IMG/VR virus record: IMGVR_UViG_3300032280_000504
Span: 1 to 50,170 of that record
Source: a virus
Taxonomy: Duplodnaviria; Caudoviricetes
Length of the DNA: 50,170 nucleotides
Reading direction: 5' to 3' (one strand)
Shown piece by piece: positions 4,042-49,022 of the stretch. Each line of letters starts with the position of its first letter. Within the stretch, counting starts at the first letter, position 1. The translations under genes and the position numbers were made by a program. Below the pieces are notes generated by a model. It saw nothing but the letters and a program-made list of their open reading frames with translations, did not search any database and was not told the origin of the DNA.

Positions 4042-5271
4042 TTAGACCATCGCGGTTTTTTTTACTTTCTCAAGCGTCGCCTTGATCTCGGCCAGCTTTA
4101 ACTCTAACAGTTTAGTCGCGGCATCCTCTTCGCTTGAAGTTTTGCCACCCGCATCCTCTGGGGTCTCGGCTGGTTTGTCGGAAGGCTCGCCTTGACCGTC
4201 GGCCGGTTCCTCAGCCCCTTCCTCTTCGTCTTCCTGCTCAGCCTCCACCGCCTCAGCCGCCAGGTACTGCGTCATCAAGGCGTTAAGCTTTTGCACCTCA
4301 CCAATCAAGGCCGCCATTAGCACATTGTTTTGCGTCATGATCGCCTGGATGTCGGTCTGCACGGTCATCTCAGGGGCTTTGGTGGCAACGCTTGACGCCA
4401 GTTTTTCCTCGTCCTCTGCGTCGACTTTGTCCGCTGGCTTTTTAGATTTTTTTGGTTTCGTAGGCTTTTTGTCTTCATCATCGACGTCACCATCTGACTC
4501 CGCGTCAGGACCATCATCCGTGGGCTTGGCCTTGGCCTCAGGGGACTCGTCGTTTCCGTCGTTGGCTCTTAAGTCTTCTAGCATGCGCTGGGCCTCGGTG
4601 GTTACCGCCTCGGGCACGCCGTCGGCGTCACCAGCTAAGATGTCTCGCAGCTCGTCTCTCGTCAGACCGCACGCCTCACACAGAGCCAAGATGCACTCCT
4701 CACGCACAGCGCCGAGGTTTTCCATGGCGTCTAGCATGTCTTGCAGTTGCAGCACGTCTTCACCGGCCGCTTTGGCTTCTAAAAACTTGCGGCGAATATT
4801 TTTAAGGCCACCTGCGGATGCCAAGTCTTTCATCGTCACAGAAAAAAGGCTCTCTTGATTCATGGGAATCGAGACGACCGACACCTCGTAAAGCTCGGCA
4901 GCTTTGATGGTGTTGACGCCGTCTTTAGTTTTCTCAGAGTCTTTGGCAGAAAAGCCTACGGAGAAAGCATTGATCATGCCCTCTTCGATCATGTCACGCA
5001 CGTAAGAGACCATGGAGTCCCGGGACTTTGAGATGCGAGCTCTGACGTGCAGACCGTCTTCTTGGGGCTTGATGTCCACCGCACGGCCGATGATCTTATC
5101 CCTGTCGTGATTGTAAAGAAGCACGGGGTTTTTCACGTAGTTTTTAAGATCCCACGCCTTCGGGTCAATCATATCATTGCCACGGTCGACTACGGCCTTG
5201 TTGGCGACGCCCTCGATATACATGTAGCCGTCAGAGGCGGCCTTGACTGTGAACGGAATAAACTTCTTCAT
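4042..5271 (-). CDS. HK97-family prohead protease with acidic scaffold-like C-terminal extension
   Basis: Motifs NPVLLYNHDRDKIIG, AFSVGF and LYEVSVVSIPMN; long D/E-rich tail. Confidence 0.92.
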   Translation of the reverse strand: MKKFIPFTVKAASDGYMYIEGVANKAVVDRGNDMIDPKAWDLKNYVKNPVLLYNHDRDKIIGRAVDIKPQEDGLHVRARISKSRDSMVSYVRDMIEEGMINAFSVGFSAKDSEKTKDGVNTIKAAELYEVSVVSIPMNQESLFSVTMKDLASAGGLKNIRRKFLEAKAAGEDVLQLQDMLDAMENLGAVREECILALCEACGLTRDELRDILAGDADGVPEAVTTEAQRMLEDLRANDGNDESPEAKAKPTDDGPDAESDGDVDDEDKKPTKPKKSKKPADKVDAEDEEKLASSVATKAPEMTVQTDIQAIMTQNNVLMAALIGEVQKLNALMTQYLAAEAVEAEQEDEEEGAEEPADGQGEPSDKPAETPEDAGGKTSSEEDAATKLLELKLAEIKATLEKVKKTAMV

Positions 5272-21710: not shown

Positions 21711-22022
21711 ATGCGCGCTAAAGAACGTTTTGGGCATAATTTGAAGCAACTTATGGCGCGTGATGGCATCAAAGGCGTCGAACTTGCCGAGCAGGTTGGG
21801 GTCAAGCCGAGCGCTGTTAGTCGGTGGGTTTCTGGAATTCAGTGGCCCGACGCAACATACATCGACCATCTCTGCGAGCTTTACGGATGGAAAGTTGAAG
21901 AGCTTTTTGGCTCAACACCTGGAGAAAAAGCAGAGACACAAGAAATTCCACTGCGCGACGCTATAGACGTCGTGTTAAGACATTTAGGCTTTGAACGAGC
22001 AAAGCTAATCAAAACAGAATAA
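21711..22022 (+). CDS. XRE/CI-like immunity repressor (HTH only)
   Basis: GVELAEQVGVKPSAVSRWVSG HTH; divergent from the early operon; no S24 peptidase domain visible. Confidence 0.8.
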   Translation: MRAKERFGHNLKQLMARDGIKGVELAEQVGVKPSAVSRWVSGIQWPDATYIDHLCELYGWKVEELFGSTPGEKAETQEIPLRDAIDVVLRHLGFERAKLIKTE

Positions 22023-23508: not shown

Positions 23509-24696
23509 TCAATTTAACGGTGACCCCTTATAGTCGGCAAAGGACAAAACTTTGCTTGCGTGGCGGTTGAGAGCCTCTCGCAACGGCTCGTCTTGGAAGT
23601 GGGCGTAATGGTCATAGGTGACCCCTGGACCGGAGTGCCCCATTAGTTTTCCGATGAGCTGCAAGTTTTCTCCGCTCATGCTCATCCACGAACCGAATGT
23701 TCTTCGAAGGTCGTGAATCGTTTTGTCTTTAAGGCCTGCATTTTCTCTAATGCGCTTCCAGGACCGGACCACGCCTTTTAGATGGTTTTGGCCGTGCCAT
23801 CCCCTAGCCTGATGAAGGCAAGGGAAAAGCCAAGGCGAGTTTTCGTGCTGAGGTATCATCTTGACGATCTCAAAGGCATCGTCACCCAGCGGTAGGAAGT
23901 GCTCTTTGCCGTTTTTCATATCTTCCCAGTAGAGCCTTTTTTGTTTGAAGTCTATGTCCTTGCGGCGAACCCTTAGGATTTCGTCCTTTCTTTTTCCAAG
24001 AAGGATGTAGAGCATAATCGCAGCTCGTGCGTAGACGTTTTCCTCTTCATTGATGGCCTTTAGGAGTGCTGGCATTTCTTCAAATGTGATGAATATGCGC
24101 CTTGCCTTTTGCTTAAACTTTTTGACAAATTGACAAGGGTTCTGCATCTGTCGGAACTCTTTAAAGTCACCCCTCGTAAAATTGATGGCCGCGCTCAAGT
24201 AAGAAAGAGCTTTATTAGCCTGAGACTGGCTACGCTTGCCGGCTCGATCTTTAAAATCTCGGATGTCTGGCGTATCGAGATCAATAAGCCTTTTGCGCCC
24301 AAGGGCTGGAACAATGTAGAGGCGGTTGATCTTTATCACTTCTTTGTACCATTTTTTTTCAACCGAGTGGTTTTCGATGTAGTAAGTCATGACATCGGCT
24401 ATCGTCATGTCGGATGCCTTTGGCTTGGTAATGTCGTTTCCGTCACGGGCCTCCATGATGATCTCGCGAGCTTTTCTCCTTGCCTCAAATGGAGTCATTA
24501 AATCGCAGGGACCGATGACGAATAATTTCAATTTTGCTTGGCGGCCAGATCCTATTCGACGATTTACAATGTAACTTTTGACGCCTGTCGGGTAAACGCG
24601 CACGCCAAATCCAGAAACCTCATCGTCCCAGGCCACGTATTGTTTGACCCGAAGATCTAAGTTTTCAATGTTTGTTTTTGTAATTTTTATCTTCAT
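23509..24696 (-). CDS. int: Tyrosine integrase with N-terminal arm-binding domain
   Basis: WDDEVSGFGVRV..TGVKSY arm domain; catalytic GKRKDE, HDLRRT, LMGHS and YDHYAH. Confidence 0.95.
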   Translation of the reverse strand: MKIKITKTNIENLDLRVKQYVAWDDEVSGFGVRVYPTGVKSYIVNRRIGSGRQAKLKLFVIGPCDLMTPFEARRKAREIIMEARDGNDITKPKASDMTIADVMTYYIENHSVEKKWYKEVIKINRLYIVPALGRKRLIDLDTPDIRDFKDRAGKRSQSQANKALSYLSAAINFTRGDFKEFRQMQNPCQFVKKFKQKARRIFITFEEMPALLKAINEEENVYARAAIMLYILLGKRKDEILRVRRKDIDFKQKRLYWEDMKNGKEHFLPLGDDAFEIVKMIPQHENSPWLFPCLHQARGWHGQNHLKGVVRSWKRIRENAGLKDKTIHDLRRTFGSWMSMSGENLQLIGKLMGHSGPGVTYDHYAHFQDEPLREALNRHASKVLSFADYKGSPLN

Positions 24697-24725
24697 CTGC
24701 CAATCCCCTCGCAATCCCCCAACGG

Positions 24726-25146: not shown

Positions 25147-25680
25147 ATGGCATCACCGGTCAATCTATCTATTAGCATCGCCTGCGAGGGCGCGCGCAAG
25201 CTCCCCATCTCATCACTCAAAGAGTTTCAAGGTGACCTCAAGTCTTTGTCGGTCGATAACTTTGAACGCCTCAAAAACGAAATCATCGAACGTGGATTTT
25301 CTGCGCCGTTCTTTGTCTGGCAAAATGATCAAACTAACTACCTCCTAGACGGCCACCAGCGCTTTAGAACACTGAAGGCTATGGCAAAGGAAGGCTATCA
25401 GATCCCAGATCTACCGGTCGTCCTGATCGAGGCTAAAAACAAAAAAGAAGCTAAGCACAAGCTCTTATCCTACGCCTCTCAGTACGGGAAAATTGAAAGC
25501 CAAGGCTTGTATGAATTTGCCGGTGACGCTGGATTTACTCTTGAAGAATTAAAAGACCACTTCTCATTTCCAGACGTCGACTTCGATAGCTTTCAAGAAG
25601 AGTTTTTTGACGTCGACACAGAAAAAGACGAAGCGCCGGATGAAGTGATTTCTCCCAAGTGTCCCACTTGCGGCAAGTGA
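25147..25680 (+). CDS. ParB-like N-terminal domain protein with C-terminal zinc ribbon
   Basis: GFSAPFFVW...LLDGHQR; ends in CPTCGK. Confidence 0.8.
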   Translation: MASPVNLSISIACEGARKLPISSLKEFQGDLKSLSVDNFERLKNEIIERGFSAPFFVWQNDQTNYLLDGHQRFRTLKAMAKEGYQIPDLPVVLIEAKNKKEAKHKLLSYASQYGKIESQGLYEFAGDAGFTLEELKDHFSFPDVDFDSFQEEFFDVDTEKDEAPDEVISPKCPTCGK

Positions 25681-25683
25681 GCC

Positions 25684-26043
25684 ATGAACGAGTCAGACTT
25701 ACAACGAGCAGCGTCTGCGTGGATGACCAGCCACGGAATCAAGTGGTGGCGTATGCCAATCGGCGGAGTAATGCACCAGGTGGGCGGGAAGATGGTTTAT
25801 AAAAAGAACCCGCTAAAGGGCTTCCCGGACATTGCTGGTGTCTTAAAGCGCAGGGACCGAGGCCGGTTTTTTGCAATTGAACTAAAGACCAAGACGGGCA
25901 AGCTGTCGCCTGAGCAAATCATGTGGCAGATAGCCCTAGACGACGCTGGGGCTGCCGTAGGGGTTATACGGTCTATTGAAGACCTGGAGGCGTTCTTTAT
26001 GGAACATGGGGAGCTAAGGCCATCCCTGAGCCAAGGAGCTTGA
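25684..26043 (+). CDS. VRR-NUC domain nuclease
   Basis: ESDLQ, GFPDI and AIELKTKTGKLSPEQ motifs. Confidence 0.88.
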   Translation: MNESDLQRAASAWMTSHGIKWWRMPIGGVMHQVGGKMVYKKNPLKGFPDIAGVLKRRDRGRFFAIELKTKTGKLSPEQIMWQIALDDAGAAVGVIRSIEDLEAFFMEHGELRPSLSQGA

Positions 26044-26929: not shown

Positions 26930-27020
26930 CTAATCCTTTTTTTATTCGTAAATACAGGCTCTTATTAACGCTAATTTCTATGTTTTTGTAACTTATTGAT
27001 ATCATTGGTTATAATTTAGC

Positions 27021-27047
27021 TAATGATTTCAGACACTATGCCGATAC
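27021..27047 (+). promoter_or_regulatory. sigma28-like promoter of RHH paralogue 1
   Basis: TAAT-N15-GCCGATAC; shares gctaatgattt-N7-tatgccgatacg with 28094-28123. Confidence 0.7.
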
Positions 27048-27073
27048 GTCTATGACCTGGGAGGGTAATCCTA

Positions 27074-27325
27074 ATGGTGCGAAAAAAAATTGTAATCGAC
27101 GGAGAAGAAATCAGCTCAAGGTTAAACCTGGCAATAACTCCGGCAATGGAAAGACATTTGGACGCAATCTGTTTAATTACTGGAAGCGACAGAACAGAGA
27201 TCTTGAGAGATCTTTTGGGGCAATTTATTAAGTCGTTCTGCGAAAAAAACTCTGACAATCCGATTGTCGAGGCAATGAAAAAAGAAAGTTCAGACGCAGT
27301 GGTAAATAAACTTTCGACGAAGTGA
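27074..27325 (+). CDS. Ribbon-helix-helix-like regulator, paralogue 1
   Basis: RLNLAITPAMERHLDAICLITGSDRTEILRDLL: beta-strand plus two helices. Confidence 0.7.
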   Translation: MVRKKIVIDGEEISSRLNLAITPAMERHLDAICLITGSDRTEILRDLLGQFIKSFCEKNSDNPIVEAMKKESSDAVVNKLSTK

Positions 27326-27337
27326 AAAGAGCCTCGA

Positions 27338-27574
27338 ATGGCAAGACCAAGAAAATTTATAGACGGCGTACCAGCAACTAAGCGTTTGGCATTTAACGTA
27401 ACACCACAAATTGAGGCAGAGTTGGAAATGATTGCGTCGCTGTTAGGGATTGAGGTTGGAGACATTATTCGCGAACTATTGAACGAGTATACATCCACCA
27501 CGCTTGAACGCATCCACAGTGGTGAAATAACCAACGAAACAATCGAGCGCGTTCTAAAAAAACAGGGCACTTGA
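27338..27574 (+). CDS. RHH-like regulator, paralogue 2 (more divergent)
   Basis: RLAFNVTPQIEAELEMIASLLGIEVGDIIRELL. Confidence 0.65.
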   Translation: MARPRKFIDGVPATKRLAFNVTPQIEAELEMIASLLGIEVGDIIRELLNEYTSTTLERIHSGEITNETIERVLKKQGT

Positions 27575-27602
27575 TCACGATGATTCATAAAAGCCACCTT
27601 TT

Positions 27603-27920
27603 TTAGTAGTTCTCGTTGACGTATTCCTGGATACATTCCTGCATATCAGGATGGTTTAAGATTTGTTTACGGTGCAATTCAAAGACGTTTTGATTGTGGC
27701 CAAAGGTTTCCATGCAAAAGACTTCATCGATTGCGGCGGTATATTCGAGCTCCAAGTGATTAATAACCACTTCTTTCTCGATGCCCCCTGTGTCGCGCGT
27801 GTCGTGGATATCAACGATTGCGGAAACCAGAACGTTAACCTCGGCGTCCTCGATCTCAATGCCGTCGACGATCAAATTCATGCAAGTTGTGAAGTCAAAT
27901 CCGATGCGGCGAGTTTTCAT
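27603..27920 (-). CDS. Acidic hypothetical protein
   Basis: ATG at 27920 after GGAGG; first gene after leader copy 2. Confidence 0.65.
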   Translation of the reverse strand: MKTRRIGFDFTTCMNLIVDGIEIEDAEVNVLVSAIVDIHDTRDTGGIEKEVVINHLELEYTAAIDEVFCMETFGHNQNVFELHRKQILNHPDMQECIQEYVNENY

Positions 27921-27943
27921 GGGGACCTCCCCTGAGATGGACC

Positions 27944-28003
27944 TGGGAACCAACTCCCTGCCACCTTATGAAATGCTTATCGGTTTTTTTTCCTTTTTTC
28001 TGA
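27944..28003 (-). promoter_or_regulatory. sigma28-like promoter plus conserved leader, copy 2
   Basis: TCAG-N15-ACCGATAA; 37/40 identity to copy 1. Confidence 0.65.
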
Positions 28004-28095
28004 GCAATTCAATATAAAACAATATATTCAATTACTTGCATATCCATTTAAACGGCTATACTGTAAGGCTCTGATTTTATTGACGTCTAAAACGC

Positions 28096-28122
28096 TAATG
28101 ATTTTCGCTGGTATGCCGATAC
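28096..28122 (+). promoter_or_regulatory. sigma28-like promoter of RHH paralogue 3
   Basis: TAAT-N15-GCCGATAC. Confidence 0.7.
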
Positions 28123-28146
28123 GATAAGAAAGAAAGAGGGGCGGAG

Positions 28147-28404
28147 ATGGCGAGGAAAAAAATAATTATAAACGGCGAGCACGCCGCTGAAAAAATCGAT
28201 GTTTCATTGACGCCAAGTTTGATTAGGTTTCTTGACGCCATCGCTTTGATCCACAACACATCGCGAACTGATATAGCGCGAAATCTGATGGTTGATTTTA
28301 TCGATGAATACCGCAAGCAACACGGCACACATGCGATTATCAAACAAATCGAGTCAGAAGTTTCAGACAAACAAATTAAAAAACTCGCCCAAAAAAGCGA
28401 GTGA
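28147..28404 (+). CDS. RHH-like regulator, paralogue 3
   Basis: MARKKIIINGEH...KIDVSLTPSLIRFLDAIALIHNTSRTDIARNLM. Confidence 0.7.
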   Translation: MARKKIIINGEHAAEKIDVSLTPSLIRFLDAIALIHNTSRTDIARNLMVDFIDEYRKQHGTHAIIKQIESEVSDKQIKKLAQKSE

Positions 28405-28459
28405 TCAAGTAACGAAATAACTTATTTTTGTTACCTGTGAATGAGATTGCACCCCCACC

Positions 28460-28971
28460 CTAAAAAATTAGATCTATAGATGGCACCCGAATAAGGGGAA
28501 GAAGGGTCCCTGGATTGACTTCCATTTGCCATCGCGGAGCGTGGCTCTAAATGTATTTTTCTTTCTCAGGCATTTTGCATTTCTGAAATTAAAAGAGACA
28601 CCAAGGAGCGTGGGCTGGCTTTGACAGGCCACTAGGCCTATCCGGCTATGAGGATGCCTCACCGGCGAGGTGATTCTTCTAAGACATGGATGGTTGTTTT
28701 GTCTGCTTAATTGCGAAGAAAGAGATAGCTTTTTAGGTCTTTTGAAAAAGACACACCTATTCATTGCCGACAAGCAACCGGATGCTCAATCAATCCAAGC
28801 TCATTCGGAGCCGCGCCCTGCGACGGCAATGCAAAATTCTGAATCAATCACCTGCGGTGGGCTCATCAACTCGCCGTTGGGGCCCACTCATTGCCGTGGA
28901 GGCTAGGGTCTTTACTCGCTTCGCCTCGCCAGACCCCCTACGTGTTTTCTAATCTTAATCTTTAAATGCGA
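28460..28971 (-). ncRNA. Candidate ~500-nt structured non-coding RNA
   Basis: GC-rich island with no convincing ORF, many nested inverted repeats and an upstream sigma70 promoter. Strand is inferred from the promoter. Confidence 0.55.
28469..28508. repeat. Dispersed repeat element, copy A
   Basis: 37/40 identical to 29922-29961. Confidence 0.9.
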
Positions 28972-28977
28972 ATTCCA

Positions 28978-29007
28978 ATTTTACAAATTACCCTGATTTT
29001 TCGTCAA
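28978..29007 (-). promoter_or_regulatory. sigma70-type promoter
   Basis: TTGACG-N18-TAAAAT with an A-rich upstream sequence. Confidence 0.65.
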
Positions 29008-29160
29008 GGGAAATTTTTTTTCATTTGAAACTGTAAAAACAGCGGTGAAATGATTTTTATTGATTGATTCAATGTCACAAAAACTTACCATTTTTTGTTT
29101 TGTTTACGGCAAGAAGAACAGTTTTATATTTTTTTCATTTGTTTAATGGACAAAATTTTT

Positions 29161-29733
29161 TTACTGCTTAACGCCGTAGGTAGCTGTATTGATCGATGTA
29201 GGCCTTTTTTCTGGGGTGGTGCCATCACCAGTGGCTAAATCTCCTGAAAACAATTTTCCACCATCCAGCTTAAATATCCAGTAACTCTTGGTACCGTTTG
29301 CGTCCTCTTTATCACCACTGGATGCGGACATCCCGGCTATGTCTTTTTTTGTGTTCAAAGCCCAATCGGAATAGCCAAATTCTTTTTTAGAGTTTGCATC
29401 ATCCAAAACTGATTGATCTTTTATTTCAAGTGTCGACGACGTCTGCGTGTAATCAATTTTATAGGTGTTTGCTAGGTTTGATAATTGATCGCCTATCGTA
29501 AAAGTATATTTACTCTCCCAAACCATTGATAAATCCACGCATTTACTGTCTTTGTAAGTCGACATAGTCCAAGTCAACTCATTGCCAGAAAAAGCTCTGA
29601 TCACCTTTGTTTCTGTTATACATTCAGAAATATAGGTCCCGGTCAAATCAACCAAGCTTCCTCCATGACTTCCATCGCTTGATCCGCAAGATGTCATCAA
29701 CAAACTAAATAAAAGAGCTGCTTCTAGTTTCAT
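29161..29733 (-). CDS. Lipoprotein moron (beta-rich)
   Basis: Lipobox LLMTS-C; AT-rich gene with AT-rich flanks. Confidence 0.8.
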   Translation of the reverse strand: MKLEAALLFSLLMTSCGSSDGSHGGSLVDLTGTYISECITETKVIRAFSGNELTWTMSTYKDSKCVDLSMVWESKYTFTIGDQLSNLANTYKIDYTQTSSTLEIKDQSVLDDANSKKEFGYSDWALNTKKDIAGMSASSGDKEDANGTKSYWIFKLDGGKLFSGDLATGDGTTPEKRPTSINTATYGVKQ

Positions 29734-29864
29734 GTTTTGACCTTTCCTTGTTTATGAAGACAAAGTCGGACATGGTTAAAACTCATTTAAACTATTTTAT
29801 AAACCTCTATATTTACTGGCAAATTTAGGGCTGAATAATTAAAGTCATTTTTAAACCATATTTT

Positions 29865-29971
29865 CATATGTAAAGGTGGCACTCCCGGAAGGGCTAGAAG
29901 GATCGCCGTCCACTTGAAAACTAGATCTATAGATGGCACCCCGATAAGGGGCAGAAGGGTCGCCGTCCACT
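29865..29971. repeat. Tandem copies C and B of the ~50-nt element (period 57)
   Basis: 29865-29914 and 29922-29971 align without gaps, sharing tggcac...aagg...agaagg.tcgccgtccact. Confidence 0.85.
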
Positions 29972-29984
29972 GGCGTCAGCCCGT

Positions 29985-30155
29985 CTAGTCGCACTCGCAG
30001 TCGTCTTCAATTTCTGCGCGCATCCGTTCAAGGCGGTCTGCGAGGTCTTGCATGATGTGCGAGATCCCCTCTACTTCATGCGGCTCGAGCCCTTCGGTGC
30101 TTGATCTCAAAAGCTTGGCTAAGCAGTTTGCGATCTTTACTACGTCATCAGTCAT
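29985..30155 (-). CDS. Small helical protein, paralogue of 26046..26261
   Basis: GAGGTG RBS; similarity to 26046..26261 as aligned above. Confidence 0.7.
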   Translation of the reverse strand: MTDDVVKIANCLAKLLRSSTEGLEPHEVEGISHIMQDLADRLERMRAEIEDDCECD

Positions 30156-30397
30156 GGTCACCTCTTTCAATCATTTTATTGCAGCTTTGATACCAGCGCC
30201 ATAAAACCCTTGAGCCACGTGCCTTCTAAGCCTCTGATCAACCACTTGCGCTCTCTCTCATTCTCAAATCTGGTAATCCTGCACACTCGTTTCTCAAAAC
30301 AAAGACAACTTCTGAAATATAAAACCCGTCAATTTGAGCATAAAAACACCGGATTTCGTCGCTTAAAACGCTTTTAAACCGCTCAACGCATATTTAT

Positions 30398-30425
30398 TTA
30401 TCGGTCAATTTACGCAAATTTCTGA
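30398..30425 (-). promoter_or_regulatory. sigma28-like promoter (cassette 3, leftward)
   Basis: TCAG-N16-ACCGATAA. Confidence 0.5.
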
Positions 30426-30566: not shown

Positions 30567-30812
30567 ATGGGAAGGAAAAAAATAACTGTCGCGGGCGAGC
30601 ACGCCACGCGGCGCGTTCACTTTGCGATTACTCCGCGCATGGAGCGCTTTCTCGATGCCATCGCACTGATAAATCAATGCGACCGCACCGAAATTATTCG
30701 CGATCTCCTCGCTGACTTTATCAACCAGTACCGCGAGCGCCACGCCGACAATCAAATCTTAAAAGAGATTGAAGACGAAACCGCCACCGGTGCCGTTGAT
30801 AAGAGTAAATAA
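30567..30812 (+). CDS. RHH-like regulator, paralogue 4
   Basis: MGRKKITVAGEH..RRVHFAITPRMERFLDAIALINQCDRTEIIRDLL; GGAGG RBS. Confidence 0.72.
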   Translation: MGRKKITVAGEHATRRVHFAITPRMERFLDAIALINQCDRTEIIRDLLADFINQYRERHADNQILKEIEDETATGAVDKSK

Positions 30813-31047: not shown

Positions 31048-31854
31048 ATGAAACAGTTACTTGCAGCTCTAGCATTTTTGTCCGCCACAGCTCACGCACA
31101 ACCAAAGCCAGACATCATCGACACAGTCGACGGTCCAAAGTCCACGGGCTACCATGGCCTTGCGCCGTCAGGATCAACGCCAGACTTGCCGTACGAAAAC
31201 ATCATCGTGAACGCGGCAACCTTGCCCGAAGCATTTGATTGGCGCGAAGAAGGTATCGACCTTCCTTTTGTGAAAGATCAAGGAGCCTGCGGGTCCTGCT
31301 GGGCGTTTGCCATCACAGGCGCACTCGAGTCTGCCGAAGCACTTTTCGGAGAAGACGAAGGCCTAAATCTTTCGGAGCAGCACATGGTGTCTTGCGACGA
31401 TCAAAGCTACGGCTGCAACGGAGGCTACATGACCAGCGCAGATTTTGTCGTCCGGAGTGGCCTTACCGATGAGGCATCGTTTCCGTATAAAGCAAAAGAT
31501 ATTCGCTGCAAGACAAATATTAATATCAAAGCAAAAGCCGCAAGCTATAACCTTTTGGGCAGTCGCAACAAGAAACCCACGACGGACGAAATAAAAGCCG
31601 CTCTTGTCGAGCATGGCCCTTTGTTTGTCACTGTCATGGCCGGAGGCTCGGGATGGAACGGCGCCGGTGATTCTGTGACGAGCTGCCGCAAGCGTGGATC
31701 AACGAACCACATGGTGCAGATCGTTGGCTACACGAAAACCCAGTGGATCATGAAAAATAGCTGGGGTCCAAAATGGGGCAAAGACGGCCATGCTTTTGTA
31801 GGTTTTGGCTGTGATCTGATCGGCCAGGAAGCTGGTTTTGTTTCGGTTAAGTAA
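31048..31854 (+). CDS. Secreted papain-family (C1A) cysteine protease
   Basis: Signal peptide (AHA-Q), LPEAFDWR, QGACGSCWAF (catalytic Cys), NHMVQIVGY (His) and KNSWG (Asn). Confidence 0.95.
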   Translation: MKQLLAALAFLSATAHAQPKPDIIDTVDGPKSTGYHGLAPSGSTPDLPYENIIVNAATLPEAFDWREEGIDLPFVKDQGACGSCWAFAITGALESAEALFGEDEGLNLSEQHMVSCDDQSYGCNGGYMTSADFVVRSGLTDEASFPYKAKDIRCKTNINIKAKAASYNLLGSRNKKPTTDEIKAALVEHGPLFVTVMAGGSGWNGAGDSVTSCRKRGSTNHMVQIVGYTKTQWIMKNSWGPKWGKDGHAFVGFGCDLIGQEAGFVSVK

Positions 31855-32281: not shown

Positions 32282-32923
32282 TTAACCCGGAGGTTTTTGT
32301 TTTATTTTATCGATAAAAACATTTCTAAGATCATTCATCGTCATGGAAATAACGCCGCCTGGGTCGTTTTTTCGGCCAAACGGCATGGCGCACTCATCGT
32401 GGCCACAGATATTTTTTGGATTGATACCCTGCTTAATAGTCCACCACAAAAACTCAGCCAGAGTCGTCTCTTGCTCCGCCGTTGCGATGTCCCAAAAATA
32501 CCAGCCATTGTCGAGGTTTCCCTTGCGCATGGCGACTTCAAATAATGGCACCCTGGTCCCAGCCCAAGAGCTATATTTCATCTCGGTTGGATGCTTGGTC
32601 ACCTCTCCCCACGAGGCCAAAGCAATCGCAATATGTCGACGATTGGGGCTCACCTTGTTCCAGGTTGCTTTCCCTGCGTGATTCACCTTGTGGCTAAAGT
32701 ACGTTGTCTGAATAAAAGAACCGTCACGGTCAATGATCGCATGATAACCGACGCCGTCATCTTTTAAATGCTTCAAAGCGCTTTCAACGTTTCGAGACGC
32801 AAGGTCGTGAATCGTAATGCCGACGGGTGGCCCGTCCATCAAGCCAGCCGATAAAGACACCGGCTCGATGATCTTGACGACGCCAGGATACACGTTTGGA
32901 AATGTGGCCTGATCGTCTGCCAT
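32282..32923 (-). CDS. Endolysin, N-acetylmuramoyl-L-alanine amidase (Amidase_2)
   Basis: ITIHD, GYHAIIDRDG, NHAG, CGHDE and RKNDPG motifs. Confidence 0.9.
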   Translation of the reverse strand: MADDQATFPNVYPGVVKIIEPVSLSAGLMDGPPVGITIHDLASRNVESALKHLKDDGVGYHAIIDRDGSFIQTTYFSHKVNHAGKATWNKVSPNRRHIAIALASWGEVTKHPTEMKYSSWAGTRVPLFEVAMRKGNLDNGWYFWDIATAEQETTLAEFLWWTIKQGINPKNICGHDECAMPFGRKNDPGGVISMTMNDLRNVFIDKIKQKPPG

Positions 32924-47734: not shown

Positions 47735-48186
47735 TTTTTACCTATCAAGCGAATCTGATCAATGATGAATTCCCTGTTTTTATCGATGGCCGGATTAACA
47801 AACGGCCTGGCCATCATGCGACCCCCTCGGACCACGCCTTTAGATGGCTGCGGTTTTTGGCCGGTCTTTCGCATGTAATAAAACATGGCGCGTTTATTTT
47901 TTTCGGTCCACTCAGAGCCGTACTCATGCCATTTGGCGTAGCCTGCACCGAACACACCAAAGATGATGCCGTTGTCGGCCGGCATATAGGAGATGCTATT
48001 GATGAGGCGGCCCGTGTTGACAATCCGTAGAGCCCGAGCGTTAAGCTTAGCCTGCGTTTTAAGGCGCTCACCAATCAGGTAAAAGGCCCGCTTAAACTCG
48101 GCGCTCCCGGGCTCCCACGCCCGCCACATGCCTTCGAGGCGGTTTAAAATCCTTTGCACGTCGGCTTGGATGGGCCTTTGCGCCAT
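47731..48186 (-). CDS. HK97 gp10-like neck protein
   Basis: VNTGRLINSI, YAKWHEYG and ARPFVNPA motifs. Confidence 0.8.
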   Translation of the reverse strand: MAQRPIQADVQRILNRLEGMWRAWEPGSAEFKRAFYLIGERLKTQAKLNARALRIVNTGRLINSISYMPADNGIIFGVFGAGYAKWHEYGSEWTEKNKRAMFYYMRKTGQKPQPSKGVVRGGRMMARPFVNPAIDKNREFIIDQIRLIGKK

Positions 48187-48188
48187 GG

Positions 48189-48788
48189 CTAGACGTTCCT
48201 AGCGGGGCGGTCTGGAACCGTAAACTCTGTGCGCCTGAAAGGATCAATCATTGACTTGATGATGCCTGGGATGTCTTGCAAGATGGTCGTCGATTCATCT
48301 CCTTTGGAGATCGCCGAGCGGCCAATGCTGCCGGTATTCCTGAAGCGGTAGAGCCACTCGACAAAGAGCAAACAAGCCATTTCAAGGTCAGCCGGCACGG
48401 TGGCGTAGCCTGCCGTATAGATGACCTGCACGTTGCCGTAGCCGTAAGGAAACACCGAATCATAAACCACGGTGCCGTCATCAATGATGCGGTATCGAGT
48501 GGGTTCAATAACGGTGTCTTCGGAAAATTGGCCACTGAGATCAACCGATACGCTTTGAATGGACGTGACAGGCCACTCTTTCAGCATGAGCATATTATTC
48601 ATGCCGCCGTGGACCTTTTCCGTCACCGCACCACTCGTGAGCTGGCGGTTGCAGTAGTTGGCAATTCGGTCCGAGCAGACGTTGATAAACCTCTCCACAC
48701 GCCCATCTTGCGACGTGTCAGAGGCTGGTATACCGAGATGATCCTTGGCCACGGCGACCGAGGTCAAAGCATTCGCGTTTAATGCCAC
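48189..48788 (-). CDS. Head-tail connector/adaptor
   Basis: LTSVAVAKDHLGI, IANYCNR, WPVTSIQSV and YTAGYATVPADLEMA motifs. Confidence 0.85.
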   Translation of the reverse strand: MALNANALTSVAVAKDHLGIPASDTSQDGRVERFINVCSDRIANYCNRQLTSGAVTEKVHGGMNNMLMLKEWPVTSIQSVSVDLSGQFSEDTVIEPTRYRIIDDGTVVYDSVFPYGYGNVQVIYTAGYATVPADLEMACLLFVEWLYRFRNTGSIGRSAISKGDESTTILQDIPGIIKSMIDPFRRTEFTVPDRPARNV

Positions 48789-48800
48789 GGCAAGTCCGCC

Positions 48801-49022
48801 TTATTTTTTTGCGACCATTTTTAAAAGCTTGTCGTCTGCCACCAACTCAAGAACGCCCTTGTACTGGCTTAAAAGCTTGTAGCCAAGGTCATCGTCGACC
48901 GTGACGACTTCGCCGACGGTCAAGTGTTTGGTGTAGAGGTGATCATTGTCAGCGCCATGCTCGCATTGAAGAACGACGTGATCTTGTCCTGGCCAAGCGG
49001 CCTTTGCAAATTTGATTTTCAT
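48801..49022 (-). CDS. Small hypothetical virion-module protein
   Basis: GGAGG RBS; precedes the adaptor gene. Confidence 0.6.
   Translation of the reverse strand: MKIKFAKAAWPGQDHVVLQCEHGADNDHLYTKHLTVGEVVTVDDDLGYKLLSQYKGVLELVADDKLLKMVAKK

Follow-up and report, generated by a model that had tools for sequence, protein, structure and literature searches.

Phage morons, in the description of Juhala et al. (2000) as quoted in PMC4104026, are cassettes that lie between two genes in one phage, that are replaced or absent in its close relatives, and that have a promoter and a terminator of their own. Prophage anti-small RNAs (anti-sRNAs; Tree et al. 2014, PMC4104026) are 51-60 nt long, have a conserved 3' region, and are bound by Hfq and provided with known targets, while GOLLD and ROOL are large structured RNAs linked to phages, according to the general accounts in bioRxiv 10.1101/2024.12.08.627333 and PMC5737381. 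The subject of the present analysis is a stretch at positions 28472-29010 of the virus record IMGVR_UViG_3300032280_000504, which was analysed in its full length of 50,170 bp and is here called the window. This stretch, the cassette, is a non-coding module that is exchanged among close relatives of the phage; it contains an inverted duplication, carries a promoter-like sequence at one edge, and may give rise to a foldback RNA. Two further groups of elements resemble it in part. The c4 RNA of P1 and P7 and the CI RNA of P4 are antisense immunity RNAs that act on sites in their own transcript. The ERIC and Correia-type elements are bacterial imperfect-palindrome repeats, or foldback miniature inverted-repeat transposable elements (MITEs), which are intergenic and can be transcribed into a long hairpin.

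The limits of the cassette are given by a comparison in which assembled contigs of four public metagenome runs (X2, X3, X4 and X6) were aligned to positions 27800-30400. In the dominant relative in run X2, a contig of 14.8 kb is homologous to the window up to 28423, continues with 428 other letters and resumes its homology at 29011; at this joint (28423|29011) the homology restarts just outside the -35 hexamer of the promoter-like site. The X3 contig retains 28472-29418, with 39 substitutions and 5 insertions or deletions (indels) in these 947 bases, and replaces 28424-28471 by 438 other letters (joint 28423|28472). The X4 contig retains 28467-28831 with 14 substitutions and 28842-29162 with 10, and small contigs of X2 and X6 span 28634-28793 and 28859-29019, with 3 and 5 differences. 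Because the joints of X2 and X3 bracket the region and because X3 and X4 keep it, the stretch 28472-29010 is a module subject to exchange: some close relatives carry it, and others have different sequence in its place. It shares its borders almost exactly with a candidate, a highly structured RNA of about 500 nt with its own promoter, that an earlier note had proposed from the letters of the sequence. The gap that holds the candidate is 756 bp long and is flanked by convergent genes, as is seen when the local map is corrected from both strands. Along the minus strand, from right to left, the gap and its borders have the following features.

29161-29733, minus strand: flanking gene for a 190-aa protein with a lipoprotein-like signal peptide, codon score 0.16
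28472-29010, minus strand: exchangeable non-coding cassette of 539 bp, delimited by contig comparison
28991-29009: weak hairpin that holds the -35 hexamer, flanked by an A-run and a T-run at opposite sides
28978-29007, minus strand: sigma70-like promoter match, predicted start near 28971
28840-28972, minus strand: right copy (ER) of the putative element E, cmsearch score 148 bits
28702-28839: centre of the palindrome, which contains the CATTGCCG/CGGCAATG pair (28762-69/28824-31), with indels of relatives at 28719, 28763 and 28769
28574-28701, plus strand: left copy (EL) of the putative element E, inverted with respect to ER, cmsearch score 140 bits
28464-28508: first copy of a 45-nt repeat, D1, which closes the cassette
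28372-28460, minus strand: three hairpins, the last of which is an intrinsic terminator
28147-28404, plus strand: flanking gene for an 85-aa protein, codon score 0.16

Like the morons described in PMC4104026, the cassette lies between two genes, is present in one phage and is replaced or absent in close relatives. It resembles them further in its promoter-like site at one end, in the terminator that follows downstream, and in its location in the accessory part of a temperate phage. Unlike the morons of that account, it has a non-coding payload, and its terminator is located in the conserved flank and not inside the exchangeable piece. The possible counterpart of the moron's own promoter is a match of 10/12 to sigma70 at the cassette edge, which overlaps a terminator-like hairpin, and the possible counterpart of its own terminator is a strong intrinsic terminator in the conserved flank; D1, which lies within the cassette, is no better folded than expected by chance.

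That the cassette is non-coding follows from several observations that agree with each other. Codon usage was expressed as a log-odds score trained on 20 long genes, for which leave-one-out values are 0.17±0.05 with a minimum of 0.077. Small real genes in the neighbourhood score 0.12-0.24, whereas the open reading frames (ORFs) inside the region score -0.22, -0.20, -0.05 and -0.14, and among windows of 60 codons in all six frames of the region none exceeds 0.04. The earlier note had found no credible ORF here, and this holds: the range is -0.05 to -0.22 in the region against 0.17±0.05 for genes. The two longer ORFs are these.

28474-28773, minus strand: 99-aa ORF, codon score -0.22
28670-28906, plus strand: 78-aa ORF, codon score -0.05

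For the 99-aa ORF there are zero homologues among proteins of 54-174 aa in a collection of 5.8 billion clusters, and the nine stop-free stretches of the region have no Pfam match and a lone PHROG match with an E value of 0.33. In the relatives that retain the cassette, indels occur at 28547 (-1), 28569 (+1), 28719 (-2), 28763 (+1) and 28769 (-1); X3 has the series -1, +1, -2, -1, and X4 has additionally +1 and -1. The deletion of two bases at 28719, common to X3 and X4, disrupts both the 99-aa and the 78-aa ORF. Since the codon scores, the lack of homologues of the 99-aa ORF, the lack of family matches and the indels of the relatives all point the same way, the cassette is non-coding. A small or decayed protein gene hidden in the region could make use of the two ORFs that do exist, and it would be in line with the cancellation of indel pairs (-1 at 28547 with +1 at 28569, and +1 at 28763 with -1 at 28769). 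This alternative is nevertheless largely refuted by the same codon scores, searches and two-base deletion, as well as by the start codons, which on reading are not preceded by a Shine-Dalgarno-like sequence while the real neighbour genes have one, and it is to be regarded as very improbable. A remnant of the peptidase gene or of other neighbouring genes was also considered and rejected, as tblastn gave chance matches only. The description of the region as a GC-rich island in the earlier note holds only in a relative sense, in that the flanks are AT-rich; the core, with 48-50% GC, equals the average of the genome (48.2%), while the entire gap has 41.7%.

The cassette matches no known RNA family, in keeping with the unrecognised class that the earlier note had proposed: a cmscan search with 4227 Rfam families gave 0 matches at gathering score in the whole window. 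When the search was confined to 28100-29300 with lax filters and E<=10, six sub-threshold matches were obtained, five to eukaryotic small nucleolar RNA (snoRNA) families and one to a Bacillus sRNA. All six are located in the AT-rich flank and all are well below their gathering scores, the best being a snoRNA model with 22.6 bits, where the gathering score is 50. ARAGORN found 0 tRNA or tmRNA genes in the 50,170 bases. It is therefore extremely improbable that inspection by eye had overlooked a divergent representative of a known family (large phage RNAs, tmRNA, RNase P, introns or transposon guide RNAs). The families GOLLD and ROOL we take to be included in Rfam. As these RNAs are portrayed in the accounts named at the outset, the cassette is like them in being several hundred nucleotides long, non-coding, phage-associated and of a function that is not known, and it is unlike them in having the architecture of a simple imperfect palindrome, in showing no ornate defined fold in folding tests and in lacking a covariance-model match. 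By that standard the evidence does not make the cassette a highly structured large RNA of the GOLLD/ROOL kind.

Searches of sequence collections for homologues of the cassette were also negative. A blastn search with the "distant" setting gave no match among 50,697 phage records, and a 20-mer from the cassette had 0 viral matches. When loci were sought through neighbouring proteins, the 190-aa protein led to a single distant viral locus (L003), where its relative is 36% identical, and to none in metagenomes; a wrong-strand ORF, the 85-aa protein and a 116-aa protein led to no related locus. Through the portal protein 13 related loci were found, of which 4 are at 70-95% identity, and all of them are fragments without the cassette region. 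In locus L003 about 1.1 kb (4065-5175), downstream of the relative of the 190-aa protein and before a RusA gene, contain no recognised protein family; this segment gives no Rfam match and is unlike the cassette in sequence.

Consider next how the cassette might be transcribed. Among the 7 runs found, none was listed as RNA, which speaks neither for nor against expression. The promoter-like site of the earlier note, TTGACG-N18-TAAAAT, is present on the minus strand at 29007-28978 and matches the sigma70 consensus in 10/12 positions. In the whole genome of 50,170 bp, both strands included, there are 9 sites with at least 10/12 matches, and 4 of these 9 cluster in 26986-29822; a twin site, TTGCCA-N17-TAAAAT, is located at 29822-29794 upstream of the 190-aa gene. 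The right copy of the putative element E begins <=1 nt from the predicted transcription start. At the other side of the cassette, the intrinsic terminator consists of a stem at 28402-28383 (8 pairs) followed by a T-run, TTTTTTAATTT, and spans 28402-28375. The minus strand of 28370-28470 folds with a z-score of -4.50, and 0/200 shuffles fold as well. This terminator extends over the final codons of the convergent 85-aa gene and belongs to the flank that is common to relatives (28373-28423), outside the exchangeable piece. The predicted minus-strand RNA from ~28971 to the terminator has a length of ~595 nt. The hairpin at 28991-29009, with ~-8 kcal/mol and a z-score of -0.6 to -0.7, is terminator-like on the minus strand and may serve as a weak bidirectional terminator, both for the 190-aa gene and for read-through on the plus strand.

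The same region could be accounted for by overlapping long 3' untranslated regions (3' UTRs), where the plus-strand mRNA of the 85-aa gene would extend to the right and that of the 190-aa gene, on the minus strand, to the left as far as 28402-28375, with mutual antisense control as a consequence. On the plus strand no convincing terminator was found after 28404, the weak candidates being 28536-28548, 28655-28672 and a hairpin with a T-run at 28991-29021, and because the 85-aa gene is without a convincing terminator, its transcripts may cross the cassette too. Downstream of the 190-aa gene no GC-rich terminator occurs before 29009, and the strong minus-strand terminator inside the end of the convergent gene is located where such a long 3' UTR would end. 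However, the cassette is swapped independently of both flanking genes, X3 has 438 other nucleotides that separate the cassette from the 85-aa gene, and the cassette has a promoter-like site of its own with an E copy that starts at the predicted +1. Overlapping 3' UTRs are on balance an unlikely explanation.

Within the cassette, the earlier note had described an outer stem enclosing further stems, and all six of its stems are found where it had placed them, five of them perfect and the outer one imperfect, as it had said; also its short repeats are in place, with CATTGCCG again at 28889 and GGAGCGTGG at 28536 and 28605. Perfect inverted 8-mers number 8, compared with 3.1±2.3 in shuffles, and 15/300 shuffles reach 8, so that such short repeats hardly exceed what chance would give. 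A pairing-aware local self-alignment reveals that the colinear nested stems are pieces of an imperfect palindrome of 399 nt, 28574-28972, with 101-107 pairs in 141-158 alignment columns; a longer second alignment reaches the centre near 28768. The palindrome has self-pairing scores of 79 on the minus strand and 94 on the plus strand, compared with 49±7.6 and 56±7.5 in shuffles, and 0/150 shuffles reach either value. At the level of DNA, 28574-28674 and the reverse complement of 28865-28972 are identical in 71/110 columns (65%), and the score of the inverted arms is 25 as against 11.7±1.8 in shuffles, where 0/300 reach it, and 10 in a control in direct orientation. The nested stems are better described by such an imperfect inverted duplication than by the multi-domain RNA of the earlier note. 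The palindrome is best read as two inverted and diverged copies of an element E of ~130 nt, to judge from these alignments; further copies of E occur neither in the window nor in five related virus records. The highest self-complementarity of the genome is located elsewhere, at 48150-48900, inside the head-tail adaptor gene (48189-48788, minus strand), where there are long ORFs on both strands, and it is probably a compositional effect.

When the two copies of E are aligned with each other, two small predicted hairpins are found in each.

28883-28900, minus strand: ER hairpin 1, 5-bp stem and 8-nt loop GGCAAUGA, alignment columns 73-77/86-90
28867-28879, minus strand: ER hairpin 2, 4-bp stem and loop GGCGA, alignment columns 94-97/103-106
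28639-28656, plus strand: EL hairpin 1, 5-bp stem and loop GGCUAUGA
28660-28672, plus strand: EL hairpin 2, 4-bp stem and loop GGCGA

In hairpin 1 three adjacent pairs are changed on both sides (CCAC/GUGG versus AUCC/GGAU) and are yet paired, while the 8-nt loop is conserved. In hairpin 2 one pair is compensated, and the loop GGCGA is identical in ER and EL. In total, 7/15 of the predicted pairs of E are compensated between ER and EL, a count that compares only two internal paralogues. In a conserved block of 45 columns, picked post hoc, there are 4 compensated pairs, which are matched by 2/2000 random placements. Conserved loops on covarying stems would, at the modest statistics available, be the signature of a folded single strand, and a protein-binding palindrome in DNA would show the opposite. 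Furthermore, the compensatory changes preserve the local hairpins but create mismatches in the rod between the arms, so that selection, if it acts, would act on the hairpins of E.

The folding energies give another picture than the "highly structured" RNA of the earlier note, whose check by RNAfold z-scores was carried out and places the region inside the phage's own background. Folding of 536 nt gives z-scores of -1.77 for the minus strand and -2.05 for the plus strand. For the transcript model of 595 nt the z-score is -2.85, compared with -1.27±1.42 in 11 other windows of 595 nt from the phage; among these background windows 4 are at or below -1.8, and 2 fold better than the candidate. Local windows of 120 nt that overlap the candidate have z-scores mostly between -2 and +1.5. 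In the 595-nt ensemble, four of the six stems (the three long-range stems and gatggca/tgccatc, 28479-85/28527-33) have pair probabilities of 0.00-0.07, and the two remaining local hairpins are favoured, with 0.66 and 0.81. Folded alone, the 399 nt have a largely rod-like structure of minimum free energy, with z-scores of -3.08 (1/100 shuffles as good) and -3.78 (0/100). As regards the RNA interpretation as a whole, its non-coding character, the sigma70-like site, the lack of an Rfam family and the exchange of the cassette as an accessory module speak for it; the attribute "highly structured" is not supported by the folding tests.

From these elements we infer the transcription of the cassette, its strand, the ends of its RNA and any function in the following way. 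Transcription would start at ~28971 on the minus strand, from the sigma70-like site at the upstream edge of the cassette, continue through the 399-nt palindrome and D1, and stop at the intrinsic terminator at 28402-28375. The product would be a foldback RNA of ~0.6 kb, or of ~0.5 kb if its end is near D1. Each E copy would present two conserved hairpin loops, GGCWAUGA and GGCGA, and the loops of the 5' copy would be complementary to the loops of the antisense 3' copy within one and the same RNA. Contacts between loops would then fold the molecule back into an imperfect rod. The RNA would have the role of an accessory, moron-like regulator, made in the lysogen or during infection, and it might act by its exposed loops, as a double-stranded substrate of the RNase III type, or because it overlaps the convergent 85-aa gene at that gene's 3' end. 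That the cassette is an orphan non-coding transcription unit of the moron type, which gives a foldback RNA, is put forward tentatively, at a little short of an even chance.

The proposed RNA can be compared with the other phage RNAs. Like the c4 RNA of P1 and P7 and the CI RNA of P4, it would have hairpin loops complementary to a sequence further along the same phage transcript; unlike in those systems, there is no gene or ribosome-binding site at the complementary copy in the cassette. An antisense target elsewhere in the phage was sought and rejected, since only chance matches of 13 nt (E 0.46) were found. The cassette shares with the sRNAs of Tree et al. (2014, PMC4104026) that it is non-coding and intergenic, that it contains convergent related copies and that it varies among prophages; the sRNAs adjoin moron genes in lambdoid prophages. 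It differs from them in that the copies of E are ~130 nt long and lie within one unit of ~0.5-0.6 kb, and in that there is no sequence similarity to the sRNAs.

Several points weigh against transcription into a foldback RNA as the reason for the structure of the cassette. The two strands do not differ in their frequency of G-U pairs (13 versus 14) and the scores of the plus strand are slightly better; because of this symmetry of G-U pairs the strand is not settled, and the ambiguous pattern fits an inverted duplication at the level of DNA as well as an RNA. When all 500-nt windows of the genome are scored, with the palindrome's own window counted, 3/398 reach its score on the plus strand and 21/398 on the minus strand (top 1-5%), and in a simpler second scan it ranks ~8th of 331 windows. 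For the E alignment as a whole the 7 compensated pairs are not significant (38/500 random placements in the same pipeline), and the only block with significant compensation was selected after inspection of the data. Templated mutation at quasi-palindromes could, moreover, mimic compensation. In the 595-nt model only 17% of the bases have a partner at p>0.8, and as a whole the transcript is no more stable than is usual in this genome. The -35 hexamer lies within a weak terminator-like hairpin, so that the promoter match could be incidental. The identity of the cassette is ~96-97% in X3 and X4, the two relatives that retain it, and its divergence over the contigs of all four runs is 2-4%, compared with 0.5% to ~14%, mostly >4%, for contigs over neighbouring sequence from the same runs. 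This is only a hint of constraint; a recent exchange would give an equally low divergence, and the contigs of one run may mix strains.

Many of these points favour a relic at the level of DNA, i.e., an inverted duplication or a foldback, MITE-like insertion without RNA function, where the promoter-like site is a by-product of the AT-rich terminator region. The symmetric G-U counts, the plus-strand score that is equal to or better than that of the minus strand, the similar self-complementarity scores elsewhere in the genome and the position of the -35 hexamer all fit such a relic, and so do the many gaps between arms of just 65% identity and the dispensability of the cassette, which is replaced in the dominant relative X2. 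The cassette also has the terminal inverted repeats of a MITE (28574-28674 and 28865-28972); a target-site duplication was looked for by eye at 28574 and 28972, and none was seen. It resembles the ERIC and Correia-type elements in being an intergenic imperfect palindrome that could yield a long hairpin, and differs from them in its size of 399 bp with arms of ~130 bp at 65% identity, and in its single copy in the phage. On the other hand, conserved loops and compensated stems are expected of a folded single strand but not of a repeat in decay, the divergence of the cassette is no greater than that of most neighbouring sequence, promoter matches as good as this one are rare (9 per genome) and sited before real units, and the phage has no additional copies of E. 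A relic without RNA function is, in view of both sides, a somewhat unlikely account of the cassette, and transcription into a foldback RNA is the account retained here.

The left end of the cassette is formed by D1, of which there are two more copies in the window.

29917-29961: D1 copy with 91% identity
29860-29904: D1 copy with 64% identity

Both are located after the gene for a 61-aa protein. The repeat holds overlapping palindromes around TAGATCTATAGAT, and the homology of X3 and X4 to the window starts within it. In the X4 contig a further copy of D1 occurs immediately past 29162, where the window carries the 190-aa gene. From this distribution D1 looks like a module boundary at the level of DNA, at the downstream ends of accessory modules, and it may be a boundary of recombination. 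That it is an RNA hairpin or a terminator was rejected, the copies having z-scores of -0.5 to +0.1 and the consensus fold of the three copies having no compensated pair; a sigma54 promoter and an integron attC site were rejected only by eye, against the consensus sequences. Searches with D1 patterns gave 0 viral matches, 1 metagenome match and 2 genome matches, all of them chance matches in unrelated DNA.

With direct terminal repeats at its ends, the window is an entire virus record and a complete genome, of ~50 kb, of a temperate tailed phage. It encodes a portal, a large terminase, a major head protein, a tape-measure protein and a DnaB-like helicase, as well as Erf-like and Gam-like recombination proteins, and three of its other genes bear on the setting of the cassette.

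21711-22022: helix-turn-helix (HTH) repressor-like protein
23509-24714: integrase
32282-32923: amidase, in the accessory region

The integrase, the repressor-like protein and the recombination and structural genes together identify the phage as temperate and tailed. The portals of the nearest cultured phages are <30% identical to the portal of the window. The cassette is placed in an accessory region, with the integrase on one side and lysis and tail genes on the other.

Near the integrase, the ORF 25147-25680 on the plus strand has a weak GmrSD_N/ParB_N-like match (E 4e-4, below cutoff), and it is followed by 25684-26043 on the same strand, which encodes a protein with a VRR-NUC nuclease domain. 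At 27016-27636 an ORF of 206 aa on the minus strand has a codon score of 0.02 (non-coding), while within it the plus-strand ORFs 27074-27325 (0.13) and 27338-27574 (0.20) score as coding and are preceded by a promoter match of 10/12 at 26986-27015; the 206-aa ORF is probably a shadow ORF. In the accessory region there is further, at 31048-31854 on the plus strand, a gene for a peptidase of the papain family (Peptidase_C1, E 6.8e-46), whose N-terminus carries a signal peptide; this is an unusual cargo for a phage.

The 85-aa flanking protein is paralogous, with 47% identity, to the 81-aa product of 30567-30812 (plus strand). The ribosome-binding regions of the two genes are conserved, and each gene is the first in a plus-strand unit beside minus-strand accessory genes. 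The label ribbon-helix-helix was considered for these paralogues from resemblance by eye and was not confirmed, as Pfam yielded nothing at E<=1 and no search by fold was carried out. They have a single non-significant PHROG match (E 0.079) and an AlphaFold2 (AF2) model of low confidence, with a predicted local distance difference test (pLDDT) value of 62.8. On the other side of the cassette, the gene for the 190-aa protein is near-identical in the relative X2 although the adjoining cassette is swapped there; this orphan may be a surface or exclusion moron. The ORF 29985-30170 on the minus strand encodes an acidic protein of 61 aa without a family match, and its differences in relatives are almost wholly at third codon positions; for this reason it is, on the evidence of substitution patterns, a real gene under purifying selection.

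In a wider perspective, the cassette could stand for a new class of accessory phage RNA: a foldback RNA of ~0.4-0.6 kb with two inverted, loop-displaying modules, which would be exchanged like protein morons and would either divert a host RNA-binding protein or a defence sensor through its loops, in the manner of a decoy or sponge, or serve in double-stranded form as a trigger or regulator. In this extended form the proposal is doubtful. The cassette is an orphan from uncultivated aquatic phages, and its value depends on transcript data and on more strain variants; the two hairpins with conserved loops would provide a concrete target for binding and knockout experiments. Morons are usually considered to be protein genes. 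If the proposal is true, the cassette would be a clean example of an exchangeable RNA gene or of a regulatory palindrome that operates at the level of RNA, and it would add to the small set of regulatory RNAs that are carried by phages.

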